64,000 bases of DNA, from contig CM119371.1 in assembly GCA_051294905.1 (NCBI GenBank), forward strand, positions 37,388,001-37,452,000. The letters run 5' to 3'. Below, one piece after another: positions 13,113-35,022 of this stretch. The notes under the pieces were generated by a model. That model was not told where the DNA came from and searched no databases. It was given only the letters and a program-made list of their open reading frames with translations. This DNA is from Botryllus schlosseri. Its lineage: Eukaryota. Made by a program: the position numbers and the translations under genes. Numbering within the stretch: position 1 is the first letter of the stretch; each line of letters starts with the position of its first letter.

Positions 13113-13204
13113 CCATATAGGGTCTCCTGTTGGAGCTTTAAGGTAAAATGATGCACTGCTCCTGTAACATTAACGCGAAACAATAACTTCATATTGTAAA
13201 TTTA

Positions 13205-13244
13205 TTCGCTAAACGCTTTTCGACTGACTCTCATCAGTAGCGAA
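13205..13244 (-). ncRNA. Minimal type I hammerhead ribozyme of Penelope element
   Basis: TTCGCTA-CTGATGA-GAGTCAGTC-GAAA-AGCG-TT-TAGCGAA; perfect 7-bp stem I and conserved core. Confidence 0.75.
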
Positions 13245-13677
13245 CGTCAGTGATAGGGTGAATCAAATTCGAAATGTAGGAACTATTTTGTCTGTATGAC
13301 GTAATAATAACAAAAAACTAGTGGACAGACAAAATACCGTAGTAACGGTAAAAAACCAACGTTAACGAGTACATATTCGGTTACAAATAACAGAGAATAC
13401 AACGCACAATATTAATGAAATATTCCAAGAGTGTAGAGGCGTTCCTTCTGGCAACAGAGAATCGGCTTTCGCAGCTATATTATCGTAGATTCCAGGACCT
13501 TCAAATTAAAAAGAGAACGGCCACGTGCAACTATAGAAAATTGACTGTCATTGTAATGATCAGCAGATTCTGGATGGGATAAGAGATGCTGTCCAATAAC
13601 CGAATTACAAGCAGTAACTTGATCATAATCACGCCGTGTGTCACCAGACTGCGATGATGGAGTTGGAGAAACATTAG

Positions 13678-14727
13678 TTATTCTAATTTGCTCTGAGACG
13701 GGCGACCTACATACCGACTATCACATCGGCACGTGTATTCATATATTATGTTGCTTTGATTGGTCGCAGGTAGCACATCCTTTTGCGTTGCAGGCATCAG
13801 AGATTTCGTCATGAAGATTATCTGCGGTTCTACTTGTGAAAAACAATGCCTCACTGACGATTTAATTTGTTTTTCAAACCTGTTGGACACTTTCCCAATC
13901 CAAGGAAGATGCAAATAAACAGGACATTTTCTAGGTCCGAATGGTTTAACTTTTTTAAAATCTTTAAGTTTACGATCCATGGTCATTTTAATGATATGAT
14001 CAGGATAACCATTTGACTGAAACATTGACCGAATGTTATCCAATTCGGAATCAAGATTGACTTTACTATGAATCATCAGAGCCTTGTGCACCAGAGTTCT
14101 TATCAAATTTACTTTACGTTTTACTGGACCATAAGAATTCCGCGAAATGTATTGCCCATTGAATGTAGGCTTACGATAAACTGATGTAACAAAATTAGCA
14201 CCCGTCTTGTCGACAACAACATCAAGGAATGCTAATAAATTATTTAACTCTTTTTCCATGGTGAATTTCAGTGACGGGTGAAGACCATTCAATTAGCTCA
14301 GAAACAAATCACACTGGGATTCATTCTCAAATATTGCGAAGGTGTCATCAACATATCTTTGATACATTAATGGTCCATCAATATCTTCGAATAACCGTTT
14401 CTCGTAATACCCCACAAAAATGTTAGCCAGAATGGGACCAAGAGGAGATCCCATTGCAACACCACCAATCTGTTTATATATGGTGTTATTGAAACTAAAT
14501 TCGACATCAAAAGTGAGCAAGCGCATTAATTTAACGGAAGAAGACCTTGAAAATGGAGGAGATGGAAGGACACCACCATAGAATTCATTGGCACAAATCT
14601 CTATATTATCTTCAACTGGCACGTTCGTGAATAAACTAGATATATCAAACGAGCACATAGAGATTTCGGACACATCGAGATCAACATTACGAATGGTATC
14701 AGCAAATGTGAACGAGTCACGAATGTA
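13678..14727 (-). pseudogene. Penelope RT core, thumb and start of GIY-YIG
   Basis: ORFs 14293-14727 and 13678-14292 are in the same frame, separated by one stop. Confidence 0.88.
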
Positions 14728-14735
14728 GTTACCTC

Positions 14736-15693
14736 TAGGGATGGTGTGAACGTGAGGTTCACGTTGGCGTTCTGTGTGTGAACCTCGCAAATTTAGGGTT
14801 TCACGTTCACAAACGAACCTTGGTAGGTTCTTCACTATGAACCTTTTTCATATATTACAATTTTCACTTCATTATAACATCTTAGGTTGACATTTATTGC
14901 ATTTCAACTGTGGGCCACTATATGCATGGCGCTGCCAGCATAAAAAAAGAATCAACACTACCAGCATGTGCCTTGACAATCTCAAAAATATTATTTGCTT
15001 TGATACAAAAGTTTGCTCGAATATTTAGTGACTCTCTGCCGTGATCTTGACCCGCAATCACACAGCATCAAGGTATTCAGCGAATTATGCTTACTCAGCC
15101 AATCGATGAAATTGATATCGCTCTCGTTGTATGATGTAAAATATCAAGCAGGCGCACGGGGACAATCTTGATTTCATATGTTTATTGTACCATAAAAACC
15201 AAATCCGTGCGATTGGGTTGTTGGAAACTGATGTATAACTTGTTAATGGGGTAACATCGGTAGCAAGTATAGAAACCCGTTTACACTCTGCTCAATATCA
15301 AAGTGGCAAAACTCAGATGCCGAAAACATTGTCCGGTCTGGCCTGGACCCGTTAAGGCGTAAACTTATATTCCCTTGCAAGTCCTCGATGAAATTGTTGG
15401 CAAAGCGACGGAATATATTGATTCATTGGATTATTATATCATTTGATTGCCTCAGTAAATACATTTGACGACGTTTAAAACGTCAATATGTACTTCAGCA
15501 TTGTGGCATTATGTGGCCCGAGTCGTCTTCAGGTATCGTGTATATTAATATACGCTACTTCACTGAAATGTAAGGATTGGAATTATCAATATGACGTGAC
15601 GTCATGAGGTCCACGTTCGCGTTCACACAGAACCTTTCAAAAAGGTTCGCGTTCACACGAACCTGAACCTTTCAGAGGTTCTCACCATCCCTA
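14736..15693. mobile_element. Intact ~960-bp non-autonomous hAT element
   Basis: TIRs TAGGGATGGTG/CACCATCCCTA; 8-bp TSD GTTACCTC/GTTACCAC; further copies at 3235-6840 and from 39876. Confidence 0.9.
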
Positions 15694-16250: not shown

Positions 16251-16269
16251 GGACCCTGCAATGTATTTC

Positions 16270-16760
16270 ATTGGTATGATATTGTAATCGGATGTGAATT
16301 TGCTTGATGACATTCGATCAACATCAAAATTACCCGCCATGATAATGTCTGTGGTTCGAAGGCTTATTCCCCGATGTTTGTATTCCGACACATTGCATGC
16401 AATGTCATACACCCCTATTCACGCGAATACTTGTGTGGGCAAACAATCGTGACGTATGTGTGGATGGTGCATTGGTATTTTCTTCGTGGAAACAAAACAC
16501 GGGGTGTAACATGTTTACTTAAATATTGGTCGTTGGGTCATGAGTGAATATCGGGATCCGATCACACACTTTTTCATGGTCATCCGGTTTCAGCTGATTG
16601 GAGCGAAACTTATTGACCAATAAAGACACAATATAGTAAACATTCGTGAGAAAACTGACAAGTAACCAGGAATTGTTAGCGCGATGCGGAACATAAATTC
16701 AGCCGTTTTCCGAACACCGTTATCCACGTACCAACCAGTTACCAAAGTCAAGGAGGTGTT
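16270..16760. mobile_element. Left part of an older diverged copy of the Polinton-like family (insertion target)
   Basis: Diverged direct copy of 22334-22799; continues collinearly at 32877 after the TSD. Confidence 0.8.
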
Positions 16761-16804
16761 AGTAGTATAGTAGATCGCTCGCAAGCGGCTATTGTGGCTT
16801 ATGG

Positions 16805-17110
16805 GCCCGCTGGTGAGGTGCCGCGAAACTCGTGTTGGTGATGGCACCCTTTAAACCCCCCCTTCCGCTGGTGAGGTGCCATGTGTTCTTATAAGAACCT
16901 TGGTGATGGTACCCTTTCAGGTATAGGCTGCGTCGGTGATGTGCCGTGAAAACTCGTGTTGGTGAGTCGTACTTTCAGGTATAGGCTGCGTCGGTGATGT
17001 GACTGTCATGTATTCTTACGGGATCTCTGGTGATGTGCCATTGTTTCTTATGGTATCTCTGGTGATGGCACCCTTTCAGGTATAGGCTGCGGCGATGATG
17101 TGCCCACGGG
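16805..17110. repeat. Subterminal tandem repeats (GGTGATGTGCC / TTTCAGGTATAGGCTGCG motifs)
   Basis: Repeated motifs just inside the left terminus, mirrored at about 31410-31655 and 32790-32830. Confidence 0.8.
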
Positions 17111-20100
17111 TTCTTGTGTGATAGTGTACTAACGTTATAGGTATAGGTATCTCTGGTGAAGTGGTGTTAAATATCAAGTGTAGTAAACAGTGACGACATT
17201 ACTTAGTATATATATTCAAAAGTATTATATATGCCAATTTGAGGTAATCCCAACGTTTACGGTGAGTGCGACTTCAATATATCGTTATTCTTATGGCCGC
17301 GGCGGTGATTCGTACTTTCGGGTATAGACTGCGGGCGGCATGTCGTACTTTCAGCGAAAAAGGTGCGAAATAGTTTGCTAAATCTAGGAATCAGTCGCAT
17401 GGTAATGTTTTAGTAATTAGTTTGCCACAGAGCCGGCGTAGACGGTGATTCGAATATCAACAATACCCACGCTCTCAAACTAACACTTCAAAAAGGTGTG
17501 AAATAGGTTACGAATCCCGCGATCGCTCACAAGATAATACCTACGACATAACCATCGCTCGCGACTTGCTGTTACATACATTCCAATCACTCACGAGGTA
17601 CTATTTTGGTAATCAGTATGTCGCGGAACTGGATTTCGCCGATAAGATTTAATAAGTAACGAATAACCGAACCGTCGCAGACGGTGATTCGAATACCGAC
17701 AAATTCTCACTTATTTCTGATCCAACCCTAATCCTTTGCGAAGTTGGCGCTTATTCAAAAAGGTGTGAAATAATTGTAAACCCTACATCGCTGACAGGAT
17801 AATGCATCAGTCATAGCGATCTAGTTATAGTGCGGTGTCCATCCATTCGCGGGATGTACTAAAGGTAAATTCAGATAATCCAAAATGAAATATCTCGACT
17901 TTGACATAGACTGAATTGAAATAGATTGACAAACATAACTACCAACTTTCACCCAGTCACATTTCGAAATTATACGCACATTGATTTGAAACAAGTAATG
18001 AAACATTACAACTCTATTCGCGATCTGGCTTTCCGTTTGCCTAAGGACATTTTAACATCTTACCATACTCAAAAGAATTATTCACAACATTAACCGATGT
18101 TACAAATCTAGTTTTCACTTACTTGATTATATCACTACAACTCGCAAACTTGAATTAATTCATCTGGTTGTATTCATATGACCGATAATTTTTATCCAAC
18201 TGTAAAGGTCGTTATACTATTCTGTAAGACAGAGTATTTACTATTCGGTGCATATGCGACTTGACATAAACCTATTATATTTTGAGTATACGAGATTTGA
18301 ATGTCTGAACAATAACTGAGAATTAAATTATCACAATTGAATCCATATATGACAGCGTAAAAGATATTGGAATGTCAGCAACTCTTTACGGTCATACTTA
18401 CAACCACATTAACTAATGTACCCAGCCAACACGTCATGATCATTCCCGAAATCAACGCAAACGCGGCCACTGACTTGAGTTAACCACAAAACGGCATCAA
18501 GTTTTAAATCCGCTTGCAGCTGACGGATTATTCGAATGCATCGACGGAGAATATTATTGAATTCGTCGGTATTGTTACTTCAACAAATTTTCGCTTACAC
18601 TGACTGCGAAAGTTAATATCGAATGGTAAGACTTGATCACATATTTGTTGAGCACAGACATGACAAAACACATTATCGAGGTTTTATAAACTAGTCATAT
18701 TACTCTACACATCTATCAATATCAGAATGCAAGTCATCAAACTTTTTGTTAAATGTAACATTGCACTTTTGGAATCGGATTCGTTATAGTCATACAAATT
18801 GTATTAAACCCAACACCAAAACAAAACGACTTTTTAGTTCATTAGAATCAAATCATTCGTCTTCGACTTGTGCTTTATTAGATTGCACGCAACAATTCGT
18901 TACGAATGAGCTGTAACCAAAGTTAAGAAATCTTTGCGTCCACAGATATAGAAGATGAATCTACCTAACACAATCACGAATCGCTGTTTCAAGTATTTCA
19001 CGGATGTAATAAACTTGTTAGTGTCACCTATCTAAAAGTATGCATGCGTTAGATTTCCATGCCGACTGTTGCGATGTTTAGGATTCGCTTACAATGACCA
19101 AGAGTAAGGATTTAACATCAATGTCGTTACTGTCGGCATTCGCAACAGAGAATCGAAACATTGCACAGTGTGAAAATATACCCTTGATATCAAAGCACTA
19201 TCCCAAGTACACGATTAATACTCAACTCCGTTCGCACTTTTTATAGAACGTGCTAAATGTAAAATATCGCGAGGTTGCACTCTAAGACTTTGATCATTAC
19301 AAAAGTAAATTGGAATATGTTTGCTAAATGAATTCAATTCAACTAGAAATGTCTAGTGCACAACACTCGTAACATCAAGGAAGTACTTGCCACACTGTAA
19401 TTCCCTAAACGTGTTTTGCATTGTTGTTCATTTGTAGTATTGATTGAAATTGTTTTTCGAACCCTCAAATATTGATTCCCGACATGAAACCAAGCCGCTG
19501 AAAGTCGTTACCATCACAACGAAACCATTTGCACGATGTTTGCCAAATGTGTCTTATAGTTAGGTGTACCAGAATTATTTGTGTAACACACCGACACAGA
19601 AATCGGAAATTTTTCCGTTGTCATTCGTTAAAGTAAATGCCATCACAATACTCTGTCACTAAAAGACGTTACTTGTATGTGATTGAATTCCTAGCAACTC
19701 ACTAAACCGAACCCCAAAGAAATTTTACTCACTCGACGGATATGAAACAGCGTCGCTTAATCGGTCTATATCATTTTTCTAAATGCAAATCATATCCACC
19801 AAGCATAAGACAATTTTCACTCGCTTGGTAATGAAACCGAGGTGTGGGTCTTCATTCAATATTTTGTTTGTGTCAAATACTTTGCAATAAACACACTGGA
19901 GTGGTTGACCTTTCCATCATCAGGCTGTCATCTGTAAATCAAGCTTACATCCGATTTGTAACAGTATCGTTTACCTAACCGAGTAGGATGCACAGTTTGA
20001 GACTTTTGTCATTTAGTGATTGCTGAACATACCACTTCTAAATACTACGTTGATCGTAATTTCCATCATCGTAATAATCGAAGTACATTTGTTTCGAGTT

Positions 20101-21884
20101 CGTAACAACCGACTTTTCTATGACATGATAAATTTTTGACAAGTTATGCTTAGAATATTGGTGCATATCGCGAAAAATAATATACCACTCATATTGATAC
20201 TGTTACTCCATTGATCGGTATTTTCAAACGAGTCGATTTTCAAACGAGTAAAATTTAATTACTTGAGTTGTTCCGCTTAATCTATTTAAATTTAAACTCA
20301 CCCATCTTTCAAAACCACAACAAACAATGATAAAAAAGTATGCAATCAAACACAAGTTTTACTTTTGTAAGACACTAATTATTATTCCACGCATCTCATT
20401 TCATACTAAGTGCATAAGAAAGATATTCATGGAACACGAAAATATTCGATATTCCCATGCTACGAACATACGCAATGATTGGTGACGCTTTCAAACTGTT
20501 TCGATTTAGTGTAACAAATAACAACAACAACAATTTTCACTCTCTTCACTTATGAAAACAACAGACGAGTCTTCATTCAATATTTTGTTTGTGTCAACTA
20601 GTTACTTTGTATGATACCCCCACAACTCTTACCAAAATACGAAGGATATTAACATCGCACAAAGTAATCAACTTTACTCGATAATCTCACATCACGAAAC
20701 TAAAGAATGGTTGGTTAGACTCTACAAACTGTTTTGATACCTCAAGAACTTTATTGTCTGAATGGTTGTTCAAGTTCATGTATCTTAATAATCAAATAGT
20801 TTAACACAGAACTAGTACTAACAGAAACATCAGAGTTGTTTACACAAAAGTTTGTATGTGTGCAGTATGCGAATACCATGTGTAAGTCCAGCACAATTGC
20901 GGTATCCATCCGAGTTTAGTTAACACAAATTTATTACAACGGAGCCACGTAAACTTTCGTGAAAGAAAAGCATACTCACCTCCAGAGGGTTCTATCAATG
21001 CCATAGCAATAAACCCGCCACTCCAACAACATAGTACATATGTTTTCTAGTAACGACTCTCAAATCTTACGCCCAGATCAATCTACTTTGCTAAGGAAAA
21101 GTGCTGAGTCATCACAAGATTGTCCTTACAACAAAACAACCTGTAGATGGATCTGCATTGAAATGTTCCGAACCCTTTGCAGGCCAGTGACAAATTTTTC
21201 AATGGTTATTTTTAGTGAATCGAATTGTTGTTCAGCGTCAAGTCTCTATGTTGAAGCGCACATTAAAACAACACAGTCACAATCCAATTAAAACCACGAA
21301 TCTATTTTCATTTCCTAACAAACTGTCACATACAGAAAAATAAATTCTATTTCTCCAAAACATACTTGTAACCAATCGCTTTCATTAAACACACAACACC
21401 ATAAAAATATTTACTTTCTACAACATATACATTCCGATGTAGTCAAGAAATATTTGTATTAATCAAGTTCATCAACTTCTGCTTACGGTGTTAGTGTGTG
21501 CATGTCATACCTGTGGGTCTCGTATTAAAATGGACACGACACGACTGAATGCAAGGAGATAGAAATCGCATCGATTTATATGGGGTTACGGTTTTAAAAC
21601 GAATCATCTCTTTTGCATTGATCGGGACCGAACAAGTTGGTTACATGTATTCGTGGTAATGATTTCGCTTGTCATATGCGAATGATAGGGTTACTGTCAC
21701 GACAAATCAAATCTACATACAACAATTTTCTGACAATCATAATAGCAATTTCGTTCTCTCCCTTCGTAATTGTATACTGACGACAAGTAGATTGTACAAC
21801 TCGACAACTACGTTTAAGACCAATGACACTGAACTCACGACGTTTACCTATGTAAAATTACCACTTTCACATGGAGGTCCACCG

Positions 21885-22333
21885 TTACCTGAGTAAAAAT
21901 ATCATTGTCCTCTGGAGATCATTGGTTTACCCAGAGTTAGAATACATTTTCACTTGGAAATTTATTTTCCCCCGAGCAACAAACCATTTTCACCTCGAGA
22001 TCCGCCGTTTCCCAAAGTAATGATACATTTTCACTTGGGGGTCTAGCGTTTCCTAGAGTAACAAACCCTTTTCACTTGGAAATAGATTTTTTCTCGGAGT
22101 AACAACTCATTTTCACTTTGGGTTCTATCCTTTCCTGGAGTAACAAACCCTTTTCGTTTGTAAATCTATTTTTTCCTACAGCAACAAACCATTTTCACTT
22201 GGAAAAATACTTTTACCTAGAGTAACTAATCATTTTCCTTTGGAAATATATTTTTTCCCTGAGTAACAATGTCGTTTTCACTTGGAAAACTATCATTTAC
22301 CTGAGTACCAATACCGTTTTCACTTGGAAATCT
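21885..22333. repeat. ~39-bp tandem array (TTTTCACTTGGAAA...GAGTAACAA)
   Basis: About 11 degenerate units; mirrored at 23075-23600 and in the old copy at 33165-33530. Confidence 0.88.
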
Positions 22334-23074
22334 TATTGGTATGACATTGTTATCGGGTGTGCTTGATGACCTTCGATCTGCATCAAAATTACCGGCTATG
22401 ATAATGTCTGTGGATCGAAGGCTTACTCCCCGTTGTTTGTATACCAACACATTGCATGCAATGTCACACACCTCCATTTACGCGTATACTTGTGTGGGCG
22501 AACAAGCGCGACGTATGTGTGGATGGTATTTTTTCGTGGAAACACAGGGTGTAACATGTTTACTTGAATATTGTTCATTGGTTTATCGATTCAGACTTGA
22601 TATCCGGATCCGGTTACGTACTTTATCAGGGTTTCCGATTTCAAACTGAATGTCGAGACATACATTGACCAATAAAGACACAATATAGTAAACATGTGGG
22701 AGGAAACTCGACACGGAATTGTTACCGCGATGGGTGACATAAATCCAACCGTTTTCCGAACACCGTTATCCACGTACCAACCATCGTCGAGGAGGTGTTT
22801 TATTCAGACATTTTGACTCTGGACAATCCAAAGCACGAACCCGGACATCACAGACCTATCGAAACCTATTGTCCAATTTCCCAAACATGCATTTCGATAT
22901 ACAAGAGCACATTGCATGTGAGTAACTGAGGATTTTGATGGGATGCGCCAGCACAAGTGAATATGCGATTACACAAATGTATCGGAGTCGTTGTTGGTGC
23001 ATATTTTGTCACTGTCCGTTGTAAAAAAATACAAAAAAAATCAAATTGTCGAGTGTGCTTGTCAGTTTTCAAAA

Positions 23075-23600
23075 ACGAAAATGGTATTGTTACCCCGGGA
23101 AAAGATAGATTTCCAAGTGAAAACGGTATTGGTACTCAGGTAAATGATAGTTTTCCAAGTGAAAACGACATTGTTACTCAGGGAAAAAATATATTTCCAA
23201 AGGAAAATGATTAGTTACTCTAGGTAAAAGTATTTTTCCAAGTGAAAATGGTTTGTTGCTGTAGGAAAAAATAGATTTACAAACGAAAAGGGTTTGTTAC
23301 TCCAGGAAAGGATAGAACCCAAAGTGAAAATGAGTTGTTACTCCGAGAAAAAATCTATTTCCAAGTGAAAAGGGTTTGTTACTCTAGGAAACGCTAGACC
23401 CCCAAGTGAAAATGTATCATTACTTTGGGAAACGGTGGATTTCGAGGTGAAAATGGTTTGTTGCTCGGGGAAAAATAAATTTCCAAGTGAAAATGTATTG
23501 TAACTCTGAGTAAACCAAAGATCTCCAAAGGACAATGATATTTTTACTCAGGTAACGGTGGACCTCCATGTGAAAGTGGTAATTTTACATAGGTAAACGT
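23075..23600. repeat. ~39-bp tandem array, inverted copy
   Basis: TTTCCAAGTGAAAA...TTGTTACTC units; reverse complement of 21885-22333. Confidence 0.88.
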
Positions 23601-24729
23601 CGTGAGTTCAGTGTCATTGATCTTGTTAAACGTAGTTGTCGAGTTGTACAATCTACTTGTCGTGAGTATACAATTACGAAGGGAGAGAATGAAATTGCTA
23701 TTATGATTGTCTGAAAATGTTGTATGTAGATTTGATTTGTCGTGACAGTAACCCTATCATTCGCATATGACTAGCGAAATCATTACAACGAATACATGTA
23801 ACCAACTTGTTCGGTCCCGATCAATGCAAAAGAGATGATTCGTTTTAAAACCGTAACCACATGTAAATCGATGCGATTTCTATCTCCTTGCATTCAGTCG
23901 TGTCGTGTCCATTTTAATACGAGACCCACAGGTATGACAGGCACACACTAACATCGTAAACAGAAGTTGATGAATTTGATTAATACAAATATTTCTTGAC
24001 TACATCGGAATGTATTTGTTGTAGAAAGTAAATACTTTTATTGTGTTGTGTGTTTGATGAAAGCGATTGGTTACAAGTATGTTTTGGGGAAATAAAATTT
24101 ATTTTTCTGTATGTGACAGTTTGTTAGGAAATGAAAATAGATTCGTGGTTTTAATTGGATTGTGACTGTGTTGTTTTAATGTGCGCTTCAACATAGAGAC
24201 TTGACGCTGAACAACAATTCGATTCACTGAAAATAACCATTGAAAAATTTGTCACTGGTCTGCAAAGGGTTCGGAACATTTTAGTACAGCTCCATCTACC
24301 GGATGTTTTGTTGTGAGGACAATCTTGTGATGACTCAGCACTTTTCGTTAGCAAAGTAGATTGATCTGGGCGTAAGATTTGAGAGTCGTTACTAGAAAAC
24401 ATATGTACTATGTTGTTGGAGTAGCGGGTTTATTGCTATGGCATTGATAGAACCCTGTGGAGGTGAGTATGCTTTTCTTTCACGAAAGCTTACGTGGCTC
24501 CGTTGTAATAAATTTGTGTTAACTAAACGCAGATGGATACCGCAATTGTGCTGGACTTACACATGGTATTCACATACTGCACACATACAAACTTTCGTGT
24601 AAACAACTCTGATGTTTCTGTTAGTACTAGTTCTGTGTTGAACTATTTGATTATTAAGATACATGAACTTGAACAACCATTCAGACAATAAAGTTCTTGA
24701 GGTATCGAAAGAGTTTGTAGAGTCTAACC

Positions 24730-26567
24730 CAGTGCTCTTCAACCGGGGTTGTCGTACACCCTAGGGTGTACCAGAATTTGCAAAGGGTGTACCACTGGGA
24801 TGGGGAGTACAGGGGTGTACCAGATCCGAATTACAATGAGCCAATGGCTAGCTATCACAAAGGCAGGTTTATGGGTCAGTACCGTTTGACGCACAGGTTA
24901 ATGAGCAATATAGTACGATGTTATCTCAAGTGTTATACTGTACACGGCTTGATTGTGATGTCATAGGCAAATATTTCTCCAATTCATTTAGCCGTCGGCA
25001 ATAGACCAATGGTTCCGTTCGGTGTTGGAAAGTATGCAGTTAACAAACATGTGTTCAGCTAGTCATTTGTCTTTTAGTGATTTTTGAGGAAACCGCCGTG
25101 ATAGCTCAGACTTCTTGAATCGTTACTTCCTACCCGACGTTACTAAATACCGCAATGCACATAAATGAAGTGACATAGCCAGCCAGGGTCGAAACAGCTT
25201 CCACGTTGAAATCGAACCCCCTTTGCTTTAAAATGCCGATTTTATGTCTAATATTTCGCCATACATTTGCAATTTAATATTTTGTTATTAGTGATGCAAA
25301 TTAGCGACAATAAACTGTGTATAGCGGCATACGATCTGAGGTTACTGACAACTCTTGCAGCCCATGTTTGTTGTTTGTTTGTTTTGGGGTATTCATGGTG
25401 ATTGCCGACTACTATGGTCATTTACACCAGGCCTTCTTATTTTCCGTAACTGCCGACTTATAGCACTGCCCACCTCTAGGCTTTTGTAAGACACCGCTGA
25501 CGCAGATGGAGTGGCGAGGAGGAGCCTAGGTAAACCTCCAACACTTAGGCAGGGCCGTAACAGCACTTTGTCAGCCCCCCCAAACGTTGGTCTTGGGCCC
25601 CCCATAGGGTGGTAAACGTACTTCTGGGGGGATTGGACCCCCAGACCCCCCTCTGACTATACGCTGTTTATATACTGTACAATGTACATTGACTATACCT
25701 TGTTTCTTCATTCAGTGTCCGTTTAGCGAATCTGTTTTCCTTGCCTAATCGCGCGAGGCACGAGAAATTTGCATAAGTCGTGACTGAATCGGTCAAGATG
25801 ACGCTGCATATACATTGGGTGTCCGTTTAAGGAGTCAGCTTTGCTTGCTTTCTATAACTCATGACTGAATCGGTCAATATGATCGGCATTTGCATATATA
25901 TTGCTATCAATTTTTATCGTCTCTCTGCTCCCGTAATCTGATTTACCGGTAGAGCTGAGTAAGGTGTGCTTGAAAAGGTATGACCCCTCAATAATGATTG
26001 AAAATCTCCGGGTGTCCTACCAGTTGGCAGGAACGAAACAGCATTTCGCCAGGCCCCCAAAAAACTTGAGTCTTGGGCTCCTAGAGGGTGATAAACCGAC
26101 CACCCCCAATCACGTTTGTTCGCTTTTGCCACGAAATTGCAGCTGTATTGTTCAGTTAACCAGCGCTAAGCGCGACAATTTTTGATAATTCATGATAAAA
26201 TCGGCCAATAAGATCGGGAATTGCATATATATTGCTATCAAGATCTTGTCCTCTCTACTCACGTAATCGGAGTTACCGGTTGAGCTGAGTGATGTGTCTT
26301 TGAAACTGTAGAGTCCGCAAATAATAATTAAACATCTTCTGACGGGCGGACTCGTTGGTATGACTTCGTTACATGTTATTTCGTGACCTCCTGTCTGCTA
26401 TATCAAAAAAATATAGAATCGCCCAAACGTACTAAACTAAAAGATCACACGATTGCAAATTGGTATTTCATCACTGGCATCTAGTTTTCCCTGCGGGATG
26501 GTATTTGTCTTGTGAGGTTCAGATTACCAAGACAGGAACATTTGGCGCCAGTCATTTAGGCGCCTAT
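24730..26567. mobile_element. Fragments of hAT-like MITEs and a short interspersed repeat within the right arm
   Basis: Starts CAGTGCTCTTCAACC; 25416-25546 matches the repeat at 56397-56446 plus 57337-57433; 25550-26567 matches parts of 9330-10510. Confidence 0.6.
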
Positions 26568-28858
26568 TGTTCCGACGCGGCACTGAAGTCAATGAGTGGC
26601 GCTTTATCAGGTGTCGGGGTCCTGTCTGCTGCACACTAAATCTGGCAATGGGTACTAAGCAAGCGTTGCGTATCTCAAATCTCTTCTGTTTCAAATACAA
26701 GCAGTCCAAAACATACAATACGGAAAAGCTTGTTCAGAAATAGATACGTTAAATGGCGAGATTCGCAAGATTGCTTGCTCGTCCGATAGCAGTCGAAATA
26801 GAGAATGAATCAACAGCAACAGTGAAATATAAAGGAAAACGAGAACGGACGTCGCAACAATTAAATTAACCAATCATCAAATCAAACAATAGTAATTAAG
26901 ATCTGTCATGGAGAATAACGGAATGCAAATAAAGTTCGGTAACTAAAAACATGACTCGTCAAAACACTCCCCCACTTGACCGACTGTAATCGGTCAAAAG
27001 ATTCTTTCATCATCTATCCAAATCCCAAAGACGAACTAATGGATGTAGAATTACCGCCGAACCCGCTAATGTCGAGACAATCGCTTTTAATCGGTGATAG
27101 CTTCAATGAATCAGCTAGATCACGAGGTACAAAGCTCTTCCGGGAAATAGGGTCAAAGGCGATTTTAACCGGTTTACCTTCGCCATTGTGGTTGATCCGT
27201 CCCAACGCAATAGGCAGTAAAGTGTCTAAATCTGAATCCCGCAATGCAGGGGTGGAAACGCCAATAGTTGATACCATACACTTGGAGTTGCTCGATGGTT
27301 CCGCTGAAATGTGCAACAATTTGTGATGGGGTTTCCCACAGCCAGCGACGGAACAACGTTCCTTACATTGATGAAAATGCTTCGGATGACCTTGATGTCC
27401 TTTCGGTGATAAGCATCTAAAACACACTTTCCCAGGCTTCATAAGCAAGTCAGTCCATCTGTGGGCTGGATTTAATTTCAGAAATTCAAAACAATCTTTC
27501 AGTAAATGTGGTTTTGAGCAATAGGTGCATGATAGTGGGACGGATTGAATCACGAGAGACTGAGCAGAAAATGATTTATCAGGTTTCTCGGTGCCAACAC
27601 TAACCAGTTCATCTTTATGTGAGGGCTTTTCACGTGCGTCAGCAGGACGACGCCCATTCTGGGACTTATTCAAAGATTCCATCGTCGTTAACTCGGTTGG
27701 TAGAAATTCAAACAAAAGATCAGAATCAGGAGCCTCGTCGACTTCGATCAGGGGACTAGTTTTCCTGATCCAACGCTCATGCAACGTACCCGGCAATTGG
27801 GACTCCAGTACCTGTGTAAAGAGTTGGTCCCAAGAGACGTCATACTGAGATAAAATAGCCTTTTTGGCAGTAGCGGAATCGAGAAGTTGTCTGACTTTGT
27901 CGATCTTAAATTCTACTTTCTGACATTGCAGTAAGTCTGCGATGTGACTTCTCACGATCGCTTGCTTCTTCCCGTACCTTTCAAAGACGGCTTTCACTGC
28001 AGGCTCATAATTAATTGCCGTTGAAGGGAAACCATTGAGAAGGCCGGATGATGATCCTTTAAGAGCCGCCTTTAAATACGTAATTTTGTAAAACCGACTG
28101 ACCTTTGGATTTTCGTGAACCAGCGGCTCGAATGACTCCCAAAATGAGGGAAATGTCAAAATGTCGCCGTTGAATGTAGGCGGCACTATTCCACTGGGGA
28201 GCGATCCGGCGGCTTTCTCGGCATCCTCGGCAGCTTTAAGTGATGCAGATTTCGATTTAGCAAGAGGGAGGTGTGCCAGATAAATTTCTTTCGAGCTTCT
28301 CATGACATCAACGATTTCGGTCTTTAAATCACCCTCGTTAAGCTGGTCGATTTTGGCATCAACGAAGGTCTTGAGATCGGTCATTGCTATATCTACTGAT
28401 CGTATGAAGACGTTGATCTCTTCGAAAGAGGTGGGGTTCCGATATTTATTTTCCAGCGCTTGCAAAGACTCGACAACTTCGGCATGCATACGTCTGAATT
28501 TTCTTATAATGACCTCAGGTAGACATGGATCGCCGTTACTTGCCGATGGGTGGCCCGAGTTGAGTTGGTCTTTTGATGACTTCTGTCGAATTTCTTCCAG
28601 TTGCAGTTGAAATCGTCTTTCGCTTTCCTCACGCTCCAGCACCTGTCTCTGCTTGAGCTCTTCAAGCTGCAACTGAAACTTGCGGTCGGCATCTTCACGA
28701 TCTAATTGCTGCTGCCGGCGATCAGCTTCACGATCTAATTGCTGCTGCTGGCGATCAGCTTCACGATCTAATTTCTGCTGCTGACGATCGAGATCTTGCT
28801 GATGCTTCAGCATCTGAAAAAGCATGACCAGTTCAGATGGATTTTCAGTGGTGCTCAA
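26568..28858 (-). mobile_element. BEL/Pao LTR retrotransposon remnant: gag, start of protease, internal deletion, PPT and 3' LTR; 5' end lost
   Basis: Probable LTR 26568-26966 (TG...CA) preceded on - by purine tract GGGGGAG; BEL-type gag upstream. Confidence 0.82.
27014..28858 (-). CDS. gag: BEL/Pao Gag (DUF1759-like domain, three zinc knuckles) and degenerate protease start
   Basis: PTFNGDILTFPSFWESF...KITYLKAALKG...RYG; CTYCSKPHLLKDC, CFRCL..H...C, CSVAGCGKPHHKLLH; TLLPIA...AFDPISRKSFV. Confidence 0.9.
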   Translation of the reverse strand: MSTTENPSELVMLFQMLKHQQDLDRQQQKLDREADRQQQQLDREADRRQQQLDREDADRKFQLQLEELKQRQVLEREESERRFQLQLEEIRQKSSKDQLNSGHPSASNGDPCLPEVIIRKFRRMHAEVVESLQALENKYRNPTSFEEINVFIRSVDIAMTDLKTFVDAKIDQLNEGDLKTEIVDVMRSSKEIYLAHLPLAKSKSASLKAAEDAEKAAGSLPSGIVPPTFNGDILTFPSFWESFEPLVHENPKVSRFYKITYLKAALKGSSSGLLNGFPSTAINYEPAVKAVFERYGKKQAIVRSHIADLLQCQKVEFKIDKVRQLLDSATAKKAILSQYDVSWDQLFTQVLESQLPGTLHERWIRKTSPLIEVDEAPDSDLLFEFLPTELTTMESLNKSQNGRRPADAREKPSHKDELVSVGTEKPDKSFSAQSLVIQSVPLSCTYCSKPHLLKDCFEFLKLNPAHRWTDLLMKPGKVCFRCLSPKGHQGHPKHFHQCKERCSVAGCGKPHHKLLHISAEPSSNSKCMVSTIGVSTPALRDSDLDTLLPIALGRINHNGEGKPVKIAFDPISRKSFVPRDLADSLKLSPIKSDCLDISGFGGNSTSISSSLGFG

Positions 28859-31664
28859 TGTTACACAAATAATTCTAGTACACCTAACTATAAGACACAT
28901 TTGGCAAACATCGTGCAAATTGTTTCGTTGTGATGGTAACGACTTTCAGCGGCTTGGTTTCATGTCGGGAATCAATATTTGAGGGTTCGAAAAACAATTT
29001 CAATCAATACTACAAATGAACAACAATGCAAAACACGTTTAGGGAATTACAGTGTGGCAAGTACTTCCTTGATGTTACGAGTGTTGTGCACTAGACATTT
29101 CTAGTTGAATTGAATTCATCTAGCAAACATATTCCAATTTACTTTTGTAATGATCAAAGTCTTAGAGTGAAACCTCGCGATATCTTACATTTAGCACGTT
29201 CTACAAAAAGTGCGAACGGAGTTGAGTATTAATCGTGTACTTGGGATACCGCTTTGATATCAAGGGTATATTTTCACACTGTGTAATGTTTCGATTCTCT
29301 GTTGCGAATGCCGACAGTAACGACATTGATGTTAAATCCTCACTTTTGGTCATTGTACGCGAATCCAAAACATCGCAACAGTCGGTATGGAAATCTAACG
29401 CATGCATACTTTTAGATAGGTGACACTAACAAGTCTATTACATCCGTGAAATACTTGAAACAGCGATTCGTGATTGTGTTAGGTAGATTCATCTTCTATA
29501 TCTGTGGACGCAAAGATTTCTTAACTTTGGTTACAGCTCATTCGTAACGAATTGTTGCCTGCAATCTAATAAAGCACAAGTCGAAGACGAATGATTTGAT
29601 TCCAATGAACTAAAAAGTCCTTTTGTTTCGGTGTTGGGTTTAATACAATTTGTATGACTATAACGAATCCGATTCCAAAAGTGCAATGTTACATTTAACA
29701 AGGAGTTTGATGACTTGCATTCTGATATTGATAGATGTGTAGAGTAATATGACTAGTTTATAAAACCTCGATAATGTGTTTTGTCATGTCTGTGCTCAAC
29801 AAATATGTGATCAAGTCTTACCAATCGATATTAACTTTCGCAGTCGGTGTAAGCGAAAATTTGTTGAAGTAACAATACCGACGAATTCAATAATATTCTC
29901 CGTCGATGCATTCGAATAATCCGTCAGCTGCAAGCGGATTTAAAACTTGATGCCGTTTTGTGGTTAACTCAAGTCAGGGGCCGCGTTTGCGTTGATTTCG
30001 GGAATGATCATGACGTGTTGGCTGGGTACATTAGTTAATGTGGTTGTAAGTATGACCGTAAAGAGTTGCTGACATTTCAATATCTTTTACGCTGTCATAT
30101 ATGGATTCAATTGTGATAATTTAATTCTCAGTTATTGTTCAGACATTCAAATCTCGTATACTCAAAATATAATAGGTTTATGTCAAGTCGCATATGCACC
30201 GAATAGTAAATACTCTGTCTTACAGAATAGTATAACGACCTTTACAGCAGGATAAAAATTATTGGTCATATGAATACAACCAGATGAATTAATTCAAGTT
30301 TGCGAGTTGTAGTGATATAATCAAGTATGTGAAAACTAGATTTGTAACACCGGTTAATGTTGTGAATAATTCTTTTGAGTATGGTAAGATGTTAAAATGT
30401 CTCTTTGGCAAACGGAAAGCCAGATCGCGAATAGAGTTGTAATGTTTCATTACTTGTTTCAAATCAATGTGCGTATAATTTCGAAATGTGACTGGGTGAA
30501 AGTTGGTAGTTATGTTTGTCAATCTATTTCAATTCAGTCTATGTCAAAGTCGAGATATTTCATTTTGGATTATCTGAATTTACCTTTAGTACATCCCGCG
30601 AATGGATGGACACCGCACTATAACTAGATCGCTATGACTGATGCATTATCCTGTCAGCGATGTAGGGTTTACAATTATTTCACACCTTTTTGAATAAGCG
30701 CCAACTTCGCAAAGGATTAGGGTTGGATCAGAAATAAGTGAGAATTTGTCGGTATTCGAATCACCGTCTGCGACGGTTCGGTTATTCGTTACATATTTAA
30801 TCTTACCGGCGAAATCCAGTTCTGCGACATACTGATTACCAAAAGAGTACCTCGTGAGGGATTGGAATGTATGTAACAGCAAGTCGCGAGCGAGGGTTAT
30901 GTCTTAGGTATTTTCTTGTGAGCGATCGCGGGATTCGTAACCTATTTCACACCTTTTTGAAGTGTTAGTTTGTGAGCGTGGGTATTGTTGATATTCGAAT
31001 CACCGTCTACGCCGGCTCTGTGGCAAACTAATTACCAAAACATTACCATGCGACTGATTCCTAGATTTAGCAAACTATTTCGCACCTTTTTCGCTGAAAG
31101 TACGACATGCCGCCCGCAGTCTATACCCGAAAGTACGAATCACCGCCGCGGCCATAAGAATAACGATATATTGAAGTCGCACTCACCGTAAACGTTGGGA
31201 TTACCTCAAATTGGTCATATATAATATTTTTGAATATACAGAATTTGTGAATACAACTAATATAATATATATAATATATATATAATATATAATATTTTTG
31301 AATATACTGAATTTTTGAATACACTGTTTACTACACTTGATATTCAACACCACTTCACCAGAGATCCCTATACCTATAACGCTAGTACACTATCACACAA
31401 GAACCCGCGGGCACATCATCGCCGTAGCCTATACCTGAAAGGGTGCCGTCACCCGAGATACCATAAGAAACAATGGCACATGACCAGAGATCCTGTAAGA
31501 ATACATGACAGGCACATCACCGACGCGGCCTATACCTGATAGTACAACTCACCAACACGAGTTTTCGCGGCACATCACCGACGCAGCCTATACCTGAAAG
31601 GGTACCATCACCAGAGTTCCCATAAGAACACATGGCACCTCACCAGCGGAAGGGGGGTCTAAAG

Positions 31665-32780
31665 CAGGGGCGGGCATACTTTTGAGCTCGCGGGCCGCAT
31701 TTAACATCTGAATCCATTCGCGGGCCGCACTATATAAAATTGGGATTATAAACGAAAACGTGATATCGATATTTGATTATATAGTGAGGACATGGAGATA
31801 ATATACGTAAGTGCTTATATAAAACAAGCCAAACATTGCTTTGATGATGTCGTACACGCGTCAGAAACATATAGTGGCGAGATTTCATGGGCTGGCGTAC
31901 CTCAATAACCAATTTGTCAAAACTATAGAGATGAAAGTCGGTTGGTCCGATTCTTAGAACAGAATTTAAATTTAAATCTGTGAGCCTGAGCAGGGATCTG
32001 TTCATAGATTTTCTAATTCCCCTTTTGGTTCAGTTCCAGGACACACAATGCTGACAGCATCATAACCATGTTAGCTTCAAACACGCCTCTACTATGTGTA
32101 GATAAAATATAAATACCCCAATTCTACGCATACAAACGATTCTACCTAAGACACGCCCGAATTGTTTTTTATAAAGACAACACTGAAATAATTAAAAATG
32201 GAGTGGCTAATCTGAAATCCCAATCGTGATCCAAATTATGTCAATCTCGTTGCAGCTATCCCGTGGTGATATTAAGTATTTACCTTAGATCAGTGATTCT
32301 CAAACTTCTTAAGACACGCCCCCCCCCCCCCCTTATGATGGTGACAGATTTCGCGGCCCCTTATCGTCATATCACAAAACGCAACCAGGATGCTAGCGAA
32401 TCTAACGGGTAGTTTGATGGCATGGAAGGTTACGGCTGTGGATGAGAGATTTCTTAAATATATAATTCGGACTAAATACAGAGCAATAACTTTGAAACGG
32501 ATGGAAAACTTTGTTCAGTTGCGCTCAGCTTCACGGCCCCCTTCAGATGTTTTCACGGCCCCACCGGGGGCGTGTCCACCAGTTTGAGAACCACTGTCTT
32601 GGAATTATCATGGTGAAATATACTAAGAAATAGTTAATCAAGTCCCTGCATTAATTCGATTTTTGGTACCGGTACGCATTTTATCAATATTTTTAAAACG
32701 TTCCTTTAGACTCTCGGGGTCCGCACAGAACGGTGTTGCGGGCCGCATGCGGCCCGCGGGCCGTAGTTTGCCCACCCATG
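31665..32780. mobile_element. hAT (Charlie-like) non-autonomous element with nested MITE at 32291-32596
   Basis: Ends CAGGGGCGGGCA/TGCCCACCCATG; perfect 8-bp TSD GTCTAAAG; empty site in the left arm near 16849-16856. Confidence 0.92.
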
Positions 32781-32876
32781 GTCTAAAGGGTGCCATCACC
32801 AACACGAGTTTCGCGGCACCTCACCAGCGGGCCCATAAGCCACAACAGCCGCTCGCGAGCGATCTACTATACTACT

Positions 32877-35022
32877 GGTGTTTATTTCGTACATTTCGAC
32901 TCTGGAAAATCCAAAGTACGAACCCGGACAATACAGACATGTCGAAACCTGTATCATCGTCCAATTTCCAAAACATAGATGTCGGTGTACACGAGCACAT
33001 TGTTATTTCATGTGGTTAACCAATGATTTTGTTGGGATGCACCATAGCAAGTGAATATGTGATTACACAAATGTATCGAAGTCGTTGTTGGGGTATATTT
33101 TGTCACTCTCCGTTGTACCAATATGACACAAATACCAAATTGATGGTTGTGGTGGTCAGATCTCAAAACGAAAATGACGTTGTTACTTAGGAAACGTTTG
33201 ATCACCAAGTGAAAATGGTGTTGTTACTCTAGGAAAAATATATTTCCCAACGAAACTGGTTAGTTACTCTAGAAAACGATGGATCTCCAAACGAAAATGA
33301 TATTGTTAATCAAGGAAAAAATATATGTCCAAACGAAAACGGTTTGTTACTCAGGCAAACGATAGATTTCCAAACGAAAATGGTATCTTTACGCCGGTAA
33401 ACGTCGGTTGTCCAAGCGAAAATGGTAATTTTACACAAGTGAACGTCAGTTGTACAAACGAAAACGGTATTTTCACTCGGGTAAGCGTCAGTTGTCTAAA
33501 CGAAAATGATATTTTTACTAGGGTAAGCGGCGTGAGTTCAGTGTTACCATTATCGTTGGTCTTGTTAAACGTTGTCGCCAGTACTCGTTGGTGTACTATT
33601 ATGTGTGTGAAAAGGATTTACCCGTCTTGTGCAGAGTATCAGAGCATCGCGACAGTGAAGATATTTTTCACGTGACGAAACAAGATCATCGGTCAAATGT
33701 GATCACATGTATTTCGATTACAGAGTTGCTGTATAAGAGAGAAAGTCTAAAGTTAGCTCGTGCTGTATGCTTCAATTAAATCCATGCACAAGAAAGACCA
33801 CATGTAAATCGACACGATAGATTTCTACCTCCTTGTATTCCGTCGTGTCGAGTCCATTTTAATACCGGTATCCAGGTATGACACCCACACTAACACCGTA
33901 AACAGATGTCGAAGATCTTTATATAGATTATTAAAAATATTTTATAACTACATGTTCAACTTAATCGGTATTTTGACGTTGTAGAAAGTAAATAATTTTA
34001 TGGAGTTGTGTGTTGGATGAAAGTGATTGGTTACAAGTATGTTTTAACGTTGCGGAGAAAGAAAATTTCTTTTCTGTATGTGACAGTTTCTGAGAAAATG
34101 AAAATCAATTCGTGGTTTTAATTGAATTGCGAATGTGCTGTTCTAATGTACGCTGCAATGCGGAAACTAGGCGCTGAGCAACAATTCGACAAAACATATC
34201 CGTTGCACCAATTGGCACTGCAAATGGTTAGGAATATTTTTGATACAGCTCCATATTACTAGTCGTTTTATTGTGTCGACAACCATGTGATGACTCAGCA
34301 CTTTTCGTTAGCAAAGTAGATTGTTTTGTGCGTAACATTTAAGAGTCGTGACTAGAGATCATGCGTACATAGATAGGTGACCATGGTTTTGTTTTTGAAA
34401 GATGTCGCGATGTCGATATAATATTTTCTAGATGTCAAACACAGACAGATATCATGAATGTGTAGGACTCACGATAAACATATGTTGTGCACATACAACT
34501 CTGTTACAGGAACTATGATATTCCTGTGTACTAGTTATGTGTTGGGTCATTTGAATATTTAGATACATGGCCATTAGTGTAAAAAAGTTCTTGCGATATC
34601 AAAACATTTTGTAGAGTCTGACCAATCATTCCACAGTTTCGTAGTATGAGAATATCGAGCGAATGTTTTCGCGTGCCATGAATATCTTTCAAATGCCTTT
34701 AGTATGAAACGAGTTGAGTGGGACAACAATAATAATAATTGGTATCCTACCAAAGTAAAACTTGTTGCGTTTAGTTGCATACTTTCTATCGTTGTTCATT
34801 GCGGTTTTGAAAGACGGATGAGTTTACATCCAAATGTACTAAGCGTAACTCGTTACTCGCTTGAAAATCGACAACGGGAAAAATACCGGTCACTAGAGTA
34901 ACAGTATCAATATGAGTGGTGTATTATTTTTCGTGATAAGTAACCAGTCTTCTAAGCATAACTTTTCAAAGATTCATCATGTCATAGAAAAGTCGTTTCT
35001 TACGAATTCGAAACAATGGTAC
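32877..35022. mobile_element. Right part of the older diverged Polinton-like copy
   Basis: Collinear, clearly diverged match to 22794-24729, continuing as the reverse complement of about 20710-20090; ends at a CAGTGGCGGCTCG hAT-like terminus. Confidence 0.82.

Follow-up and report, generated by a model that had tools for sequence, protein, structure and literature searches.

An abundant family of gene-less giant palindromes, probably derived from Polintons/Mavericks, in the genome of Botryllus schlosseri

The element at 16761-32876 of the window (the whole 64,000-nucleotide stretch of Botryllus schlosseri DNA analysed here) is very probably a non-autonomous, gene-less derivative of the Polinton/Maverick elements, belonging to an abundant family of giant palindromes from which it inherited its build. 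As judged from the copies compared, members of this family appear to span about 12-15 kb, with arms of 5.5-7 kb and a centre of 0.8-1.7 kb. The palindromic build itself appears to be inherited rather than formed at this locus, because copies elsewhere have the arms and the centre type in common, and those of subfamily A also agree exactly in the junctions between arm and spacer. Briefly, we advance the following mechanism. The element would have retained the cis-acting Polinton ends alone, and a putative Polinton integrase, supplied in trans, would have catalyzed both its insertion and the accompanying 6-bp duplication. The target would have been another member of the family, older and presumably silenced, and the chromodomain that the helper integrase is predicted to carry may explain this self-nesting.

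Boundaries and anatomy of the palindrome

Both tips of the element read AGTAGTATAGTAGATCGCTCG inward, at 16761-16781 on the forward and 32876-32856 on the reverse strand; with up to three mismatches allowed, a motif scan of the window recovers these two matches alone, against an expectation of 0 from 100 shuffles. The tips thus display the AGTAGT...ACTACT arrangement, i.e., the (AGT)2 ... (ACT)2 motif of Polintons/Mavericks. According to one survey, vertebrate Mavericks combine the (AGT)2 end motif with a 6-bp target-site duplication (TSD) and terminal inverted repeats (TIRs) (PMC8097293). Immediately outside the tips lie two unstranded copies of GGTGTT, at 16755..16760 and 32877..32882. Two uninterrupted paralogues of the flanks (at C9b and C2b) read ...GAGGAGGTGTTTTATTC... 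with a single GGTGTT, and the hexamer is therefore a true TSD. The scan and these paralogous empty sites bear out the 6-bp duplication and matching tips that the preliminary description had reported; its caveat that GGTGTT might be a fixed part of the element falls away, given the single occurrence in the empty sites and the different TSDs of the other copies. On either side, the flanks are themselves family sequence (neither part assigned to a strand): the left part (16257..16760) is an older, degraded piece of centre or inner arm that is 77-85% identical to other copies, and the right part (32877..35022) runs outward along an arm and contains 41-42-bp repeats at 33158-33526. From these similarities, the copy appears to be nested within a fragment of its own family that is older than itself.

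The inverted repeat extends from the tips inward to 22333/23107, leaving an unpaired centre of 773 bp (22334-23106). The earlier account of a ~5.6-kb inverted repeat around a ~770-bp spacer holds for the extent and the centre but not for continuity, as the self-comparison resolves into seven collinear blocks of 97 nt (97% identity), 336 nt (95%), 812 nt (99%), 1543 nt (98%), 1016 nt (97%), 93 nt (97%) and 518 nt (98%). Together the paired blocks account for 4,415 of the 5,573 nt of the left arm at ~97.7% identity, a weighted mean of the rounded block identities. The left arm (16761..22333; 5,573 bp, + strand) is non-coding, with no stop-to-stop frame of at least 100 aa inside it. It begins with AGTAGT in a terminal region (16761..17304, + strand) that is homologous to the TIR of an autonomous Polinton, and carries at its inner end a 41-bp unit repeated about 10 times in tandem (21926..22331, + strand), mirrored in the right arm at 23073..23549 (- strand). 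Within the element, these arrays are found only at these two places, ~5 kb from the tips.

The right arm (23107..32876, - strand) reaches 9,770 bp because it includes two arm-specific pieces. The first is a 4,129-bp unstranded segment (24730..28858) in place of 1,124 bp that the left arm retains at 19589-20712 and that represent the ancestral state, being collinear in C9a and C2b. This segment holds a truncated Pao/BEL-type gag frame (27014-28945, - strand; DUF1759, E 2.2e-20). The second is a 1,116-bp non-autonomous element (31665..32780, unstranded), flanked by an 8-bp duplication, GTCTAAAG, at 31657-31664 and 32781-32788, whose ends, CAGGGGCGGGCATACT and CATGGGTGGGCAAACT, agree in 13 of 16 positions, and which we take to be hAT-like from the length of its TSD and its end motif. 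The copy is an old, dead member of the family, since its arms have diverged by 2-3% and the hAT-like insertion and the Pao/BEL-containing replacement each sit in one arm only.

Giant near-perfect palindromes are also a recognised class of assembly artefact, arising as palindromic chimaeras during long-read library preparation. Such an origin is vanishingly unlikely here because the arms differ by 2-3%, they bear two arm-specific insertions, one with its own 8-bp TSD, and the same build recurs at 12 other loci with related elements (11 of the 12 with a perfect 6-bp TSD of their own). The paralogous empty sites of the 6-bp TSD count against it too, as does a short-read contig of run X1 bridging the right junction (32820-32926), although this run is probably the assembly's own sample and not independent, and its contigs are fragmentary in the repeat, in pieces mostly shorter than 500 nt that cannot span the palindrome, with many joints coming from other copies.

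Polinton ends without Polinton genes

A search for autonomous elements with the same ends, as the preliminary description had proposed, led to C10b, a 17.4-kb element in the same genome with 756-bp TIRs and its own 6-bp TSD. Pfam searches identify in it an integrase (rve, E 6.7e-16, with a chromodomain, 7.8e-9) and, in a 1082-aa frame matching DNA_pol_B_2 (6.3e-7), the protein-primed polymerase pPolB. It also yields matches to P-loop NTPases, Pox_A32 (the A32-like ATPase) among them, most of which fall under the Pfam cutoffs, and a 432-aa frame resembling clusters with a DJR-like domain in 14-30% of their members, which is a lead only; the latter frame has no match among PDB sequences, and Pfam finds no protease among the frames of C10b. 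At least 43 pPolB loci are present in the genome; among the matches listed, protein identity ranges over 80-100%, with a class at 80-81% and one that differs at the N-terminus, and 32 of the 43 loci are free of internal stops.

The tips of the 16761-32876 copy are 84% identical to the C10b TIR over 551 nt, and ten other copies match the C10b termini at 84-95% over 300-520 nt. In two palindromes, Polinton-like sequence reaches 1.2-1.5 kb and includes stretches unique to one end of C10b that recur in both arms at 92% identity: left-end-unique sequence in C8a and right-end-unique sequence in C9b. The attribution to Polintons/Mavericks, which had rested on the termini and the TSD, is thus corroborated by homology to an element encoding pPolB and an rve integrase, along with the (AGT)2 motif and the 6-bp TSD. 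The further proposal of one Polinton end duplicated and inverted fares well as a general idea, as C8a and C9b illustrate, but the arms of the 16761-32876 copy cannot be equated with a Polinton genome, only their outer ~550 bp being alike. Here, the recognisable C10b sequence is the TIR, which is common to both parental ends. Beyond ~550 bp, the arms match neither the DNA nor the proteins of C10b, the one autonomous element compared; on that comparison, the inner ~5 kb of each arm would have a source other than C10b. Among the arm-block matches listed across the genome (40), none lies within 20 kb of the 43 listed pPolB loci.

The coding content tells the same story. Among the long frames in 16761-32876, there is only the Pao/BEL gag within the secondary insertion and no pPolB or integrase frame; 14 arm and centre frames taken from five copies give nothing above the Pfam cutoffs; and tblastn with all 21 C10b frames detects no remnants of Polinton genes in the arms of this copy, the matches being to TIR-internal frames and, in C8a and C9b only, to two subterminal frames. 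These frame, tblastn and Pfam results uphold the earlier view of a non-autonomous element, and since pPolB and an integrase of its own are lacking, we file it as a non-autonomous derivative rather than as an autonomous Polinton.

That the greater part of each arm bears no relation to the compared Polinton might instead favor a foldback-type transposon of another superfamily, Polinton-like at the tips only and moved by a cut-and-paste transposase. Foldback elements (FB of Drosophila, and Galileo of the P superfamily) do resemble the present family in their very long arms, internal tandem repeats (here, the 41-bp arrays), scarcity or absence of coding sequence and variation in the centre. Nevertheless, this alternative is highly improbable. 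The terminal 300-550 bp are 84-95% identical to Polinton TIRs, and the likeness extends further still in C8a and C9b. The TSD is of 6 bp, as in autonomous C10b (perfect in 12 of the 13 other complete copies), whereas FB generates 9 bp and Galileo 7 bp. The arms of FB have tandem subrepeats up to their tips, whereas in the present family the arrays occupy only the inner arm ends, ~5 kb inward; and at 12-15 kb its members are several-fold larger than FB and Galileo.

A family of transposed palindromes with alternative centres

Excluding C10b, we examined 12 other non-autonomous copies, of which 11 are palindromes with 3-7-kb arms and one (C9a) is degraded. Eleven of the 12 have a perfect 6-bp TSD of their own, C13a matching at 4 of 6 positions; with C10b included, 12 of 13 complete copies have perfect TSDs, all different (C10a, a 14th element missing its right end, stands outside this count). 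The first 10 elements comprised eight clear palindromes with arms 99.2-100% alike, the degraded C9a and the autonomous element with its 756-bp TIR; three further palindromes were found beyond these. Genome-wide, the terminal motif occurs 1005 times in forward and 1002 times in reverse orientation, against 12 and 18 for a reversed control, and 21 of 38 end pairs delimit elements of 13-15 kb. The 21-nt terminal motif has 0 matches in viral contigs. In the published literature, Repbase and subscription papers aside, we found no giant-palindromic Polinton derivative.

Four copies share a spacer of ~930-950 bp, with coinciding boundaries and 88-90% identity. This canonical spacer is absent from the 16761-32876 copy, whose unpaired centre (22334..23106, 773 bp, + strand) corresponds instead to a segment, S, that lies innermost in both arms of A-type copies (88-94% identity). 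The same centre type recurs in C14b, with its junction within 14 nt; at 11,936 bp, this sibling also fits the original size of ~12 kb estimated in the preliminary description. The position 22333/22334 had been read as the fold point of a snap-back event. Elsewhere, however, the sequence from 22334 onward starts a segment present on both arms, beside the ~930-bp spacer, and alignment of the centres suggests that 22333/22334 is probably the boundary of a central deletion. The loop in this copy and C14b would then be a single segment S, most likely left when an A-type palindrome suffered a deletion from its symmetry centre that removed one S and the spacer. Alternatively, this centre could stem from another, independent fold-back that turned round at a different place. 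We also considered S plus the spacer as an independent transposon, which would explain the sharp boundary of S but leaves its constant central position unexplained.

These comparisons bear directly on whether the 16761-32876 element was a singular product, formed when fold-back template switching doubled one Polinton end in one round of replication, and integrated at this site. A palindrome with Polinton ends and a clean TSD is what such an event would yield, and the one-end-specific Polinton sequence in both arms of C8a and C9b implies that fold-back or equivalent events do occur in the lineage. C14a, whose outer ends are heterologous, is likewise compatible with it, and indicates that ends are still being exchanged. 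As an account of this copy, though, a one-off event is very doubtful: at least 12 copies at other loci, all with TSDs of their own, carry homologous arms, 41-bp arrays and centres; C14b has the same centre type; and where the fold was supposed to lie, a segment begins that other copies have in both arms. The palindromic build, arms and centre are common to many transposed copies, and the idea of a singular snap-back product is accordingly set aside. Differing TSDs and flanks exclude the other copies being segmental duplicates of 16761-32876.

Concerted arms and their possible maintenance

Within young copies (C16a, C2b and C9b among them) the arms are 99.2-100% alike, as against 75-94% between copies. 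Near-identity within copies alongside a 6-25% difference between them indicates that arms have been re-equalised in each lineage; by this measure, the arms appear to evolve in concert. On the terminal 300 nt, the two arms of a copy group as sisters in 9 of 11 cases, the two exceptions being the right end of 16761-32876, interrupted by the hAT-like insertion, and C14a with its heterologous ends. In a 1-kb inner block, they are sisters in 4 of 4 copies with support of 100/100, and the arms of 16761-32876 have equal end branches (0.019 and 0.018). For this copy, the terminal-300-nt arm identity of 58.5% is meaningless, because the hAT-like insertion sits 97 nt from the right end and was left in the alignment; its arm comparison rests on the collinear blocks and the inner block.

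How might the arms be equalised? We place the process, at roughly even chances of being right, in the replication cycle, which seems to us the most likely route. A displaced or excised single strand would snap back into a hairpin, thereby restoring a double-stranded protein-priming origin, and one arm would then be copied or repaired from the other; after insertion, the arms would decay independently. A panhandle keeps the terminal repeats of adenoviruses and linear plasmids identical, and the proposed hairpin would be an extreme form of it. The same element and family could alternatively have its arms kept alike on the chromosome by arm-to-arm gene conversion, which is established in large genomic palindromes such as those of sex chromosomes and would equally produce arms that agree within copies and differ between them. 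We consider this unlikely. Older-looking copies have diverged arms (~97.7% identity in 16761-32876, 96.5% in C9a and 98.5% in C13a), insertions in one arm have neither been lost nor spread to the other, and the end branches of the two arms of 16761-32876 are equal, all of which fit free decay after insertion.

More tentatively, the family may consist of germline-fixed satellite or defective-interfering genomes of endogenous polintoviruses, a possibility to which we give a clearly smaller chance. The protein-primed polymerase of a helper would replicate the self-annealed hairpin, one arm being re-copied per cycle, which would explain the concerted arms; ends would be swapped with helpers by template switching; and the products would be packaged in Polinton capsids. 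Such packaging would account for elements without genes staying at 13-15 kb, some 75-85% of the length of the 17.4-kb helper, rather than shrinking to the size of MITEs.

Likeness to viral snap-back genomes and wider meaning

With autonomous Polintons/Mavericks the family has in common the (AGT)2 motif, the 6-bp TSD, TIRs and ends that are 84% identical over ~550 nt, but it is a palindromic family without genes whose inverted repeats, at 5.5-7 kb, make up ~90% of the element. By comparison, the inverted repeats of 134 intact vertebrate Mavericks range over 46-1,447 bp (PMC8097293), and the nearest published case that we found is that of butterfly Polintons with gene-bearing TIRs of ~2 kb (bioRxiv 10.1101/2025.02.07.637071). 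With snap-back or copy-back viral genomes, the family shares, to judge from C8a and C9b, the presence of one genome end, inverted, at both ends, along with a probable place in a protein-primed lineage and a presumed dependence on a helper. Genomes of adenovirus incomplete particles with large inverted duplications of one end were reportedly described by Daniell in 1976. Unlike these, the present elements form a germline-integrated, inherited family with subfamilies and something like a thousand pairs of ends, and most of their sequence cannot be traced to the helper.

The 16761-32876 copy matters in itself only as an illustration of the family and of how it nests within its own sequence. For genome annotation, ~2,000 such ends in a 495-Mb genome amount to a sizeable and easily mis-assembled class of repeats. 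Were the satellite interpretation true, transcripts of these elements would fold into multi-kb dsRNA, able to feed small-RNA silencing of sequences that share their ends. To our knowledge, there is no direct demonstration of how Polintons replicate; the "racket" model of Kapitonov and Jurka (2006), protein-primed and single-stranded, is said to have been inferred from Polinton genes. Abundant, gene-less elements with Polinton ends only, lineage-identical arms, ends swapped with autonomous elements and near-genome length offer sequence-level handles on that replication. With them, replication through a panhandle or hairpin, mobilisation in trans and, possibly, size limits set by the capsid become testable questions.

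Polinton ends and the nested insertion in the window

The element spans window positions 16761-32876, and both its termini read inward as AGTAGTATAGTAGATCGCTCG, a sequence that (allowing up to 3 mismatches) has two matches in the window, one at each element end, where none is expected by chance. A repeat search of the window yielded seven collinear inverted blocks with 95-99% identity (16761-22333 versus 32876-23107), the paired blocks covering 4,415 of the 5,573 nt of the left arm and leaving an unpaired centre of 773 bp. GGTGTT adjoins the element on both sides (16755-16760 and 32877-32882); the flanks (16257-16760 and 32877-35022) have their homologues within the family, in the part of other copies that spans centre and inner arm, and two of these copies, C9b and C2b, carry the flank sequence uninterrupted with GGTGTT present once. 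Hence, GGTGTT is a target-site duplication (TSD) rather than a fixed part of the element, and the palindrome, its ends and the duplication are confirmed as in the preliminary description. The window copy thus lies within 2.7 kb left of an older family member. Taken together with a locus where three Polinton-ended elements lie one inside another (G000:C1:16768420-16810257; own lengths ~13.1, 14.0 and 14.7 kb), this nesting suggests a preference for insertion into same-family copies; the helper integrase carries a chromodomain.

Across the 495-Mb genome, 62 or more significant matches to the terminal 440 nt occur, many as +/- pairs, ten of which were first retrieved for comparison, with the copies C14a, C14b and C13a being added later. 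On the evidence of its frames, one of these elements, C10b (C10:15432336-15449746; 17,411 bp; terminal inverted repeats (TIRs) of 756 bp; own TSD CACCTC), looks like an autonomous Polinton: one frame matches rve and a chromodomain, a 1082-aa frame matches DNA_pol_B_2 (Pfam), a further frame has P-loop/Pox_A32-like matches, mostly under Pfam cutoffs, and a 432-aa frame is similar to protein clusters with a DJR-like domain (a lead only). The genome holds at least 43 pPolB loci (80-100% protein identity), 32 of the 43 listed being without an internal stop; 11 of these 43 near-full-length matches have exactly one in-frame stop, TAA in 10 of the 11, in frames otherwise long and open. The ends of the window copy are 84% identical to the C10b TIRs over 551 nt, and those of other copies 84-95% over 300-520 nt. 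The 6-bp TSDs are perfect and mutually different in 12 of the 13 other complete copies (C10b and 11 non-autonomous ones); that of C13a matches at 4 of 6 positions, and C10a, a fourteenth element lacking its right end, is outside this count. These C10b-like ends and family-wide 6-bp TSDs, along with the (AGT)2 ends, 6-bp TSDs and TIRs of 46-1,447 bp that PMC8097293 gives for Mavericks, make the affiliation of the window copy as a non-autonomous Polinton derivative well supported. Thus, the earlier assignment to Polintons, made from termini and TSD, stands, and the autonomous relative with pPolB, integrase and its own 6-bp TSD, for which a search by terminus had been proposed, is found in C10b.

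The right arm is longer than the left because of two segments. The first, a 1,116-bp insertion present on the right arm only (31665-32780; 31657-32788 with its own 8-bp duplication GTCTAAAG), looks like a non-autonomous, hAT-like element with imperfect inverted ends (CAGGGG.../CATGGG..., 13 of 16 positions matching); the left arm keeps the uninterrupted counterpart of the site, CTTTAAAC. The second, of 4,129 bp (24730-28858), replaces what is 1,124 bp on the left arm, the latter version being ancestral, as it is collinear with other copies. The sole long frame of the region (27014-28945, minus strand) lies inside this replacing segment and encodes a gag of Pao/BEL type that is truncated (DUF1759, E 2.2e-20). 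Window 26163-26493, also within the segment, is 76% identical to intergenic C10b 4955-5289, probably as a small repeat common to both. A ~670-bp repeat interrupting only the left arm of the copy C16a (L040:3323-3993) occurs twice in the window (13163-13691 and 41987-42638; 92% and 75%), and C16a itself is flanked by a further repeat, present at window 14735-15018 and 39873-40377. In sum, the copy in the window is old, interrupted and nested; it belongs to a non-autonomous family of giant palindromes derived from Polintons, and its locus is ordinary within that family.

Centres, abundance and length of the palindrome family

Eight of the first ten pairs form clear giant palindromes (arms 3.4-7.2 kb long and 99.2-100% identical); of the other two, C9a is degraded and C10b is autonomous. 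C14a, C14b and C13a are palindromic too. Arm sequences are mosaic between copies (75-94% identity). Four copies (C6a, C8a, C16a, C16b) have in common a central spacer of ~930-950 bp with coincident boundaries and 88-90% identity, and three (C2b, C10a, C9b) a second spacer type. As these spacers recur at separate loci, whole palindromes have transposed. The one-off snap-back at the window locus that had been proposed gives way to 11 further palindromic copies with mosaic arms and common spacer types.

In copies with the ~930-bp spacer, a ~770-bp segment, S, lies innermost on both arms and meets the spacer at a palindrome of 13 nt, TGACTCAGAGTCA, which may mark the turning or breaking point of the palindrome; it flanks the spacer on both sides in the aligned junctions of C6a, C16b and C14a (L035/L036, L048, L050/L051). 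The window copy has a single S at its centre and no spacer. Sequence rightward from 22334 has more than 35 genomic matches at 97-98%, starting exactly at 22331-22333; what had been taken as a fold point at 22333/22334 is where S, present on both arms of the copies with the ~930-bp spacer, begins. The same layout is found in C14b (11,936 bp; TSD GCTGTC; arms of 5,515 bp at 99.6%), whose repeat/S junction is within 14 nt of that of the window copy; this type of centre has hence transposed as well. Without later additions the window copy would measure ~12.0 kb, in agreement with C14b and with the original size of ~12 kb first estimated. C13a, at 96-97% identity the nearest relative among those found, differs again in having an asymmetric centre. 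The centres of the window copy, C14b and C13a are probably products of deletions in a larger palindrome, starting from its centre of symmetry; alternatively, they could be independent fold-backs with different turn-round points.

A genome-wide count of the end motif AGTAGTN6GATCNNTCG gave 1005 forward and 1002 reverse occurrences; the reversed motif, as control, gave 12 and 18. The first 100 ends listed include 38 +/- pairs, defined by ends and spacing: 21 measure 13-15 kb with nested members subtracted, and eight 15-19 kb, scored pPolB loci lying inside two of these eight. The gene-less elements are tightly clustered at ~75-85% of the length of the helper, which may point to a packaging limit or could reflect shared descent instead.

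Exchange of ends and equalisation of arms

For the inner ~5 kb of each arm, sequence comparison and protein search detected no relation to C10b DNA or proteins, and none of the matches listed (40 arm-block hits, 43 pPolB loci) places pPolB within 20 kb of an arm-block hit. In the outer parts, C8a has 644 nt of C10b left-unique sequence on both arms, and C9b 911 nt of right-unique sequence, likewise on both (92% each). C14a (G000:C14:13701944-13715435; perfect TSD AACGTT) is a chimaera: its inner 5.5 kb are 99.86% identical between arms, and its outer ends (567 and 1,013 bp) are unrelated, one being C10b-TIR-like and the other having C10b left-unique sequence. One-end-specific sequence on both arms of C8a and C9b and the heterologous ends of C14a show that ends are swapped with autonomous elements and symmetrised afterwards. 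The notion of a duplicated Polinton end hence survives as end exchange followed by symmetry, and not as a singular event at the window locus. Two subterminal C10b frames of 188 and 217 aa without a Pfam match (L044:1136-1699(-) and L045:6210-6860(+)) persist on both arms in C8a and C9b, copies that otherwise lack genes, with protein identity of 92-93%; there may be a reason for their conservation, such as a sequence acting in cis or a small protein associated with the ends.

In 9 of 11 copies, left and right arms share 98-100% identity over the terminal 300 nt, against a between-copy median of 83.8%, the two exceptions being the window copy (hAT-like insertion) and C14a (heterologous ends). 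Likewise, a tree of an inner block of 1 kb groups left and right arm as sisters in all four copies (support 100/100), with equal branches for the window arms (0.019 and 0.018) as against ~0.14 between copies. Since free evolution from the origin of the palindrome would give divergence at the between-copy level, arms must have been re-equalised in each lineage. This seems tied to the mobile phase rather than chromosomal residence, because copies with signs of age are more diverged between arms (window ~97.7%, C9a 96.5%, C13a 98.5%) and arm-specific insertions persist in the window copy. Most simply, a single strand would anneal to itself as a hairpin; this would re-form the double-stranded origin for priming, and one arm might act as template for the other or correct it. 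An analogy for this step is offered by protein-primed replicons, whose terminal repeats undergo panhandle repair.

Known systems and Polinton replication

The nearest viral analogue of the family is provided by adenovirus incomplete-particle genomes, which Daniell reportedly described in 1976 as having inverted duplications. Foldback transposons (FB, Galileo) look alike but differ in ends and TSD from these palindromes. The nearest report found concerns butterfly Polintons with TIRs of ~2 kb containing hexon and adenain genes (10.1101/2025.02.07.637071); no giant-palindromic Polinton derivative was found described in the literature searched. The family is of real interest for Polinton replication.
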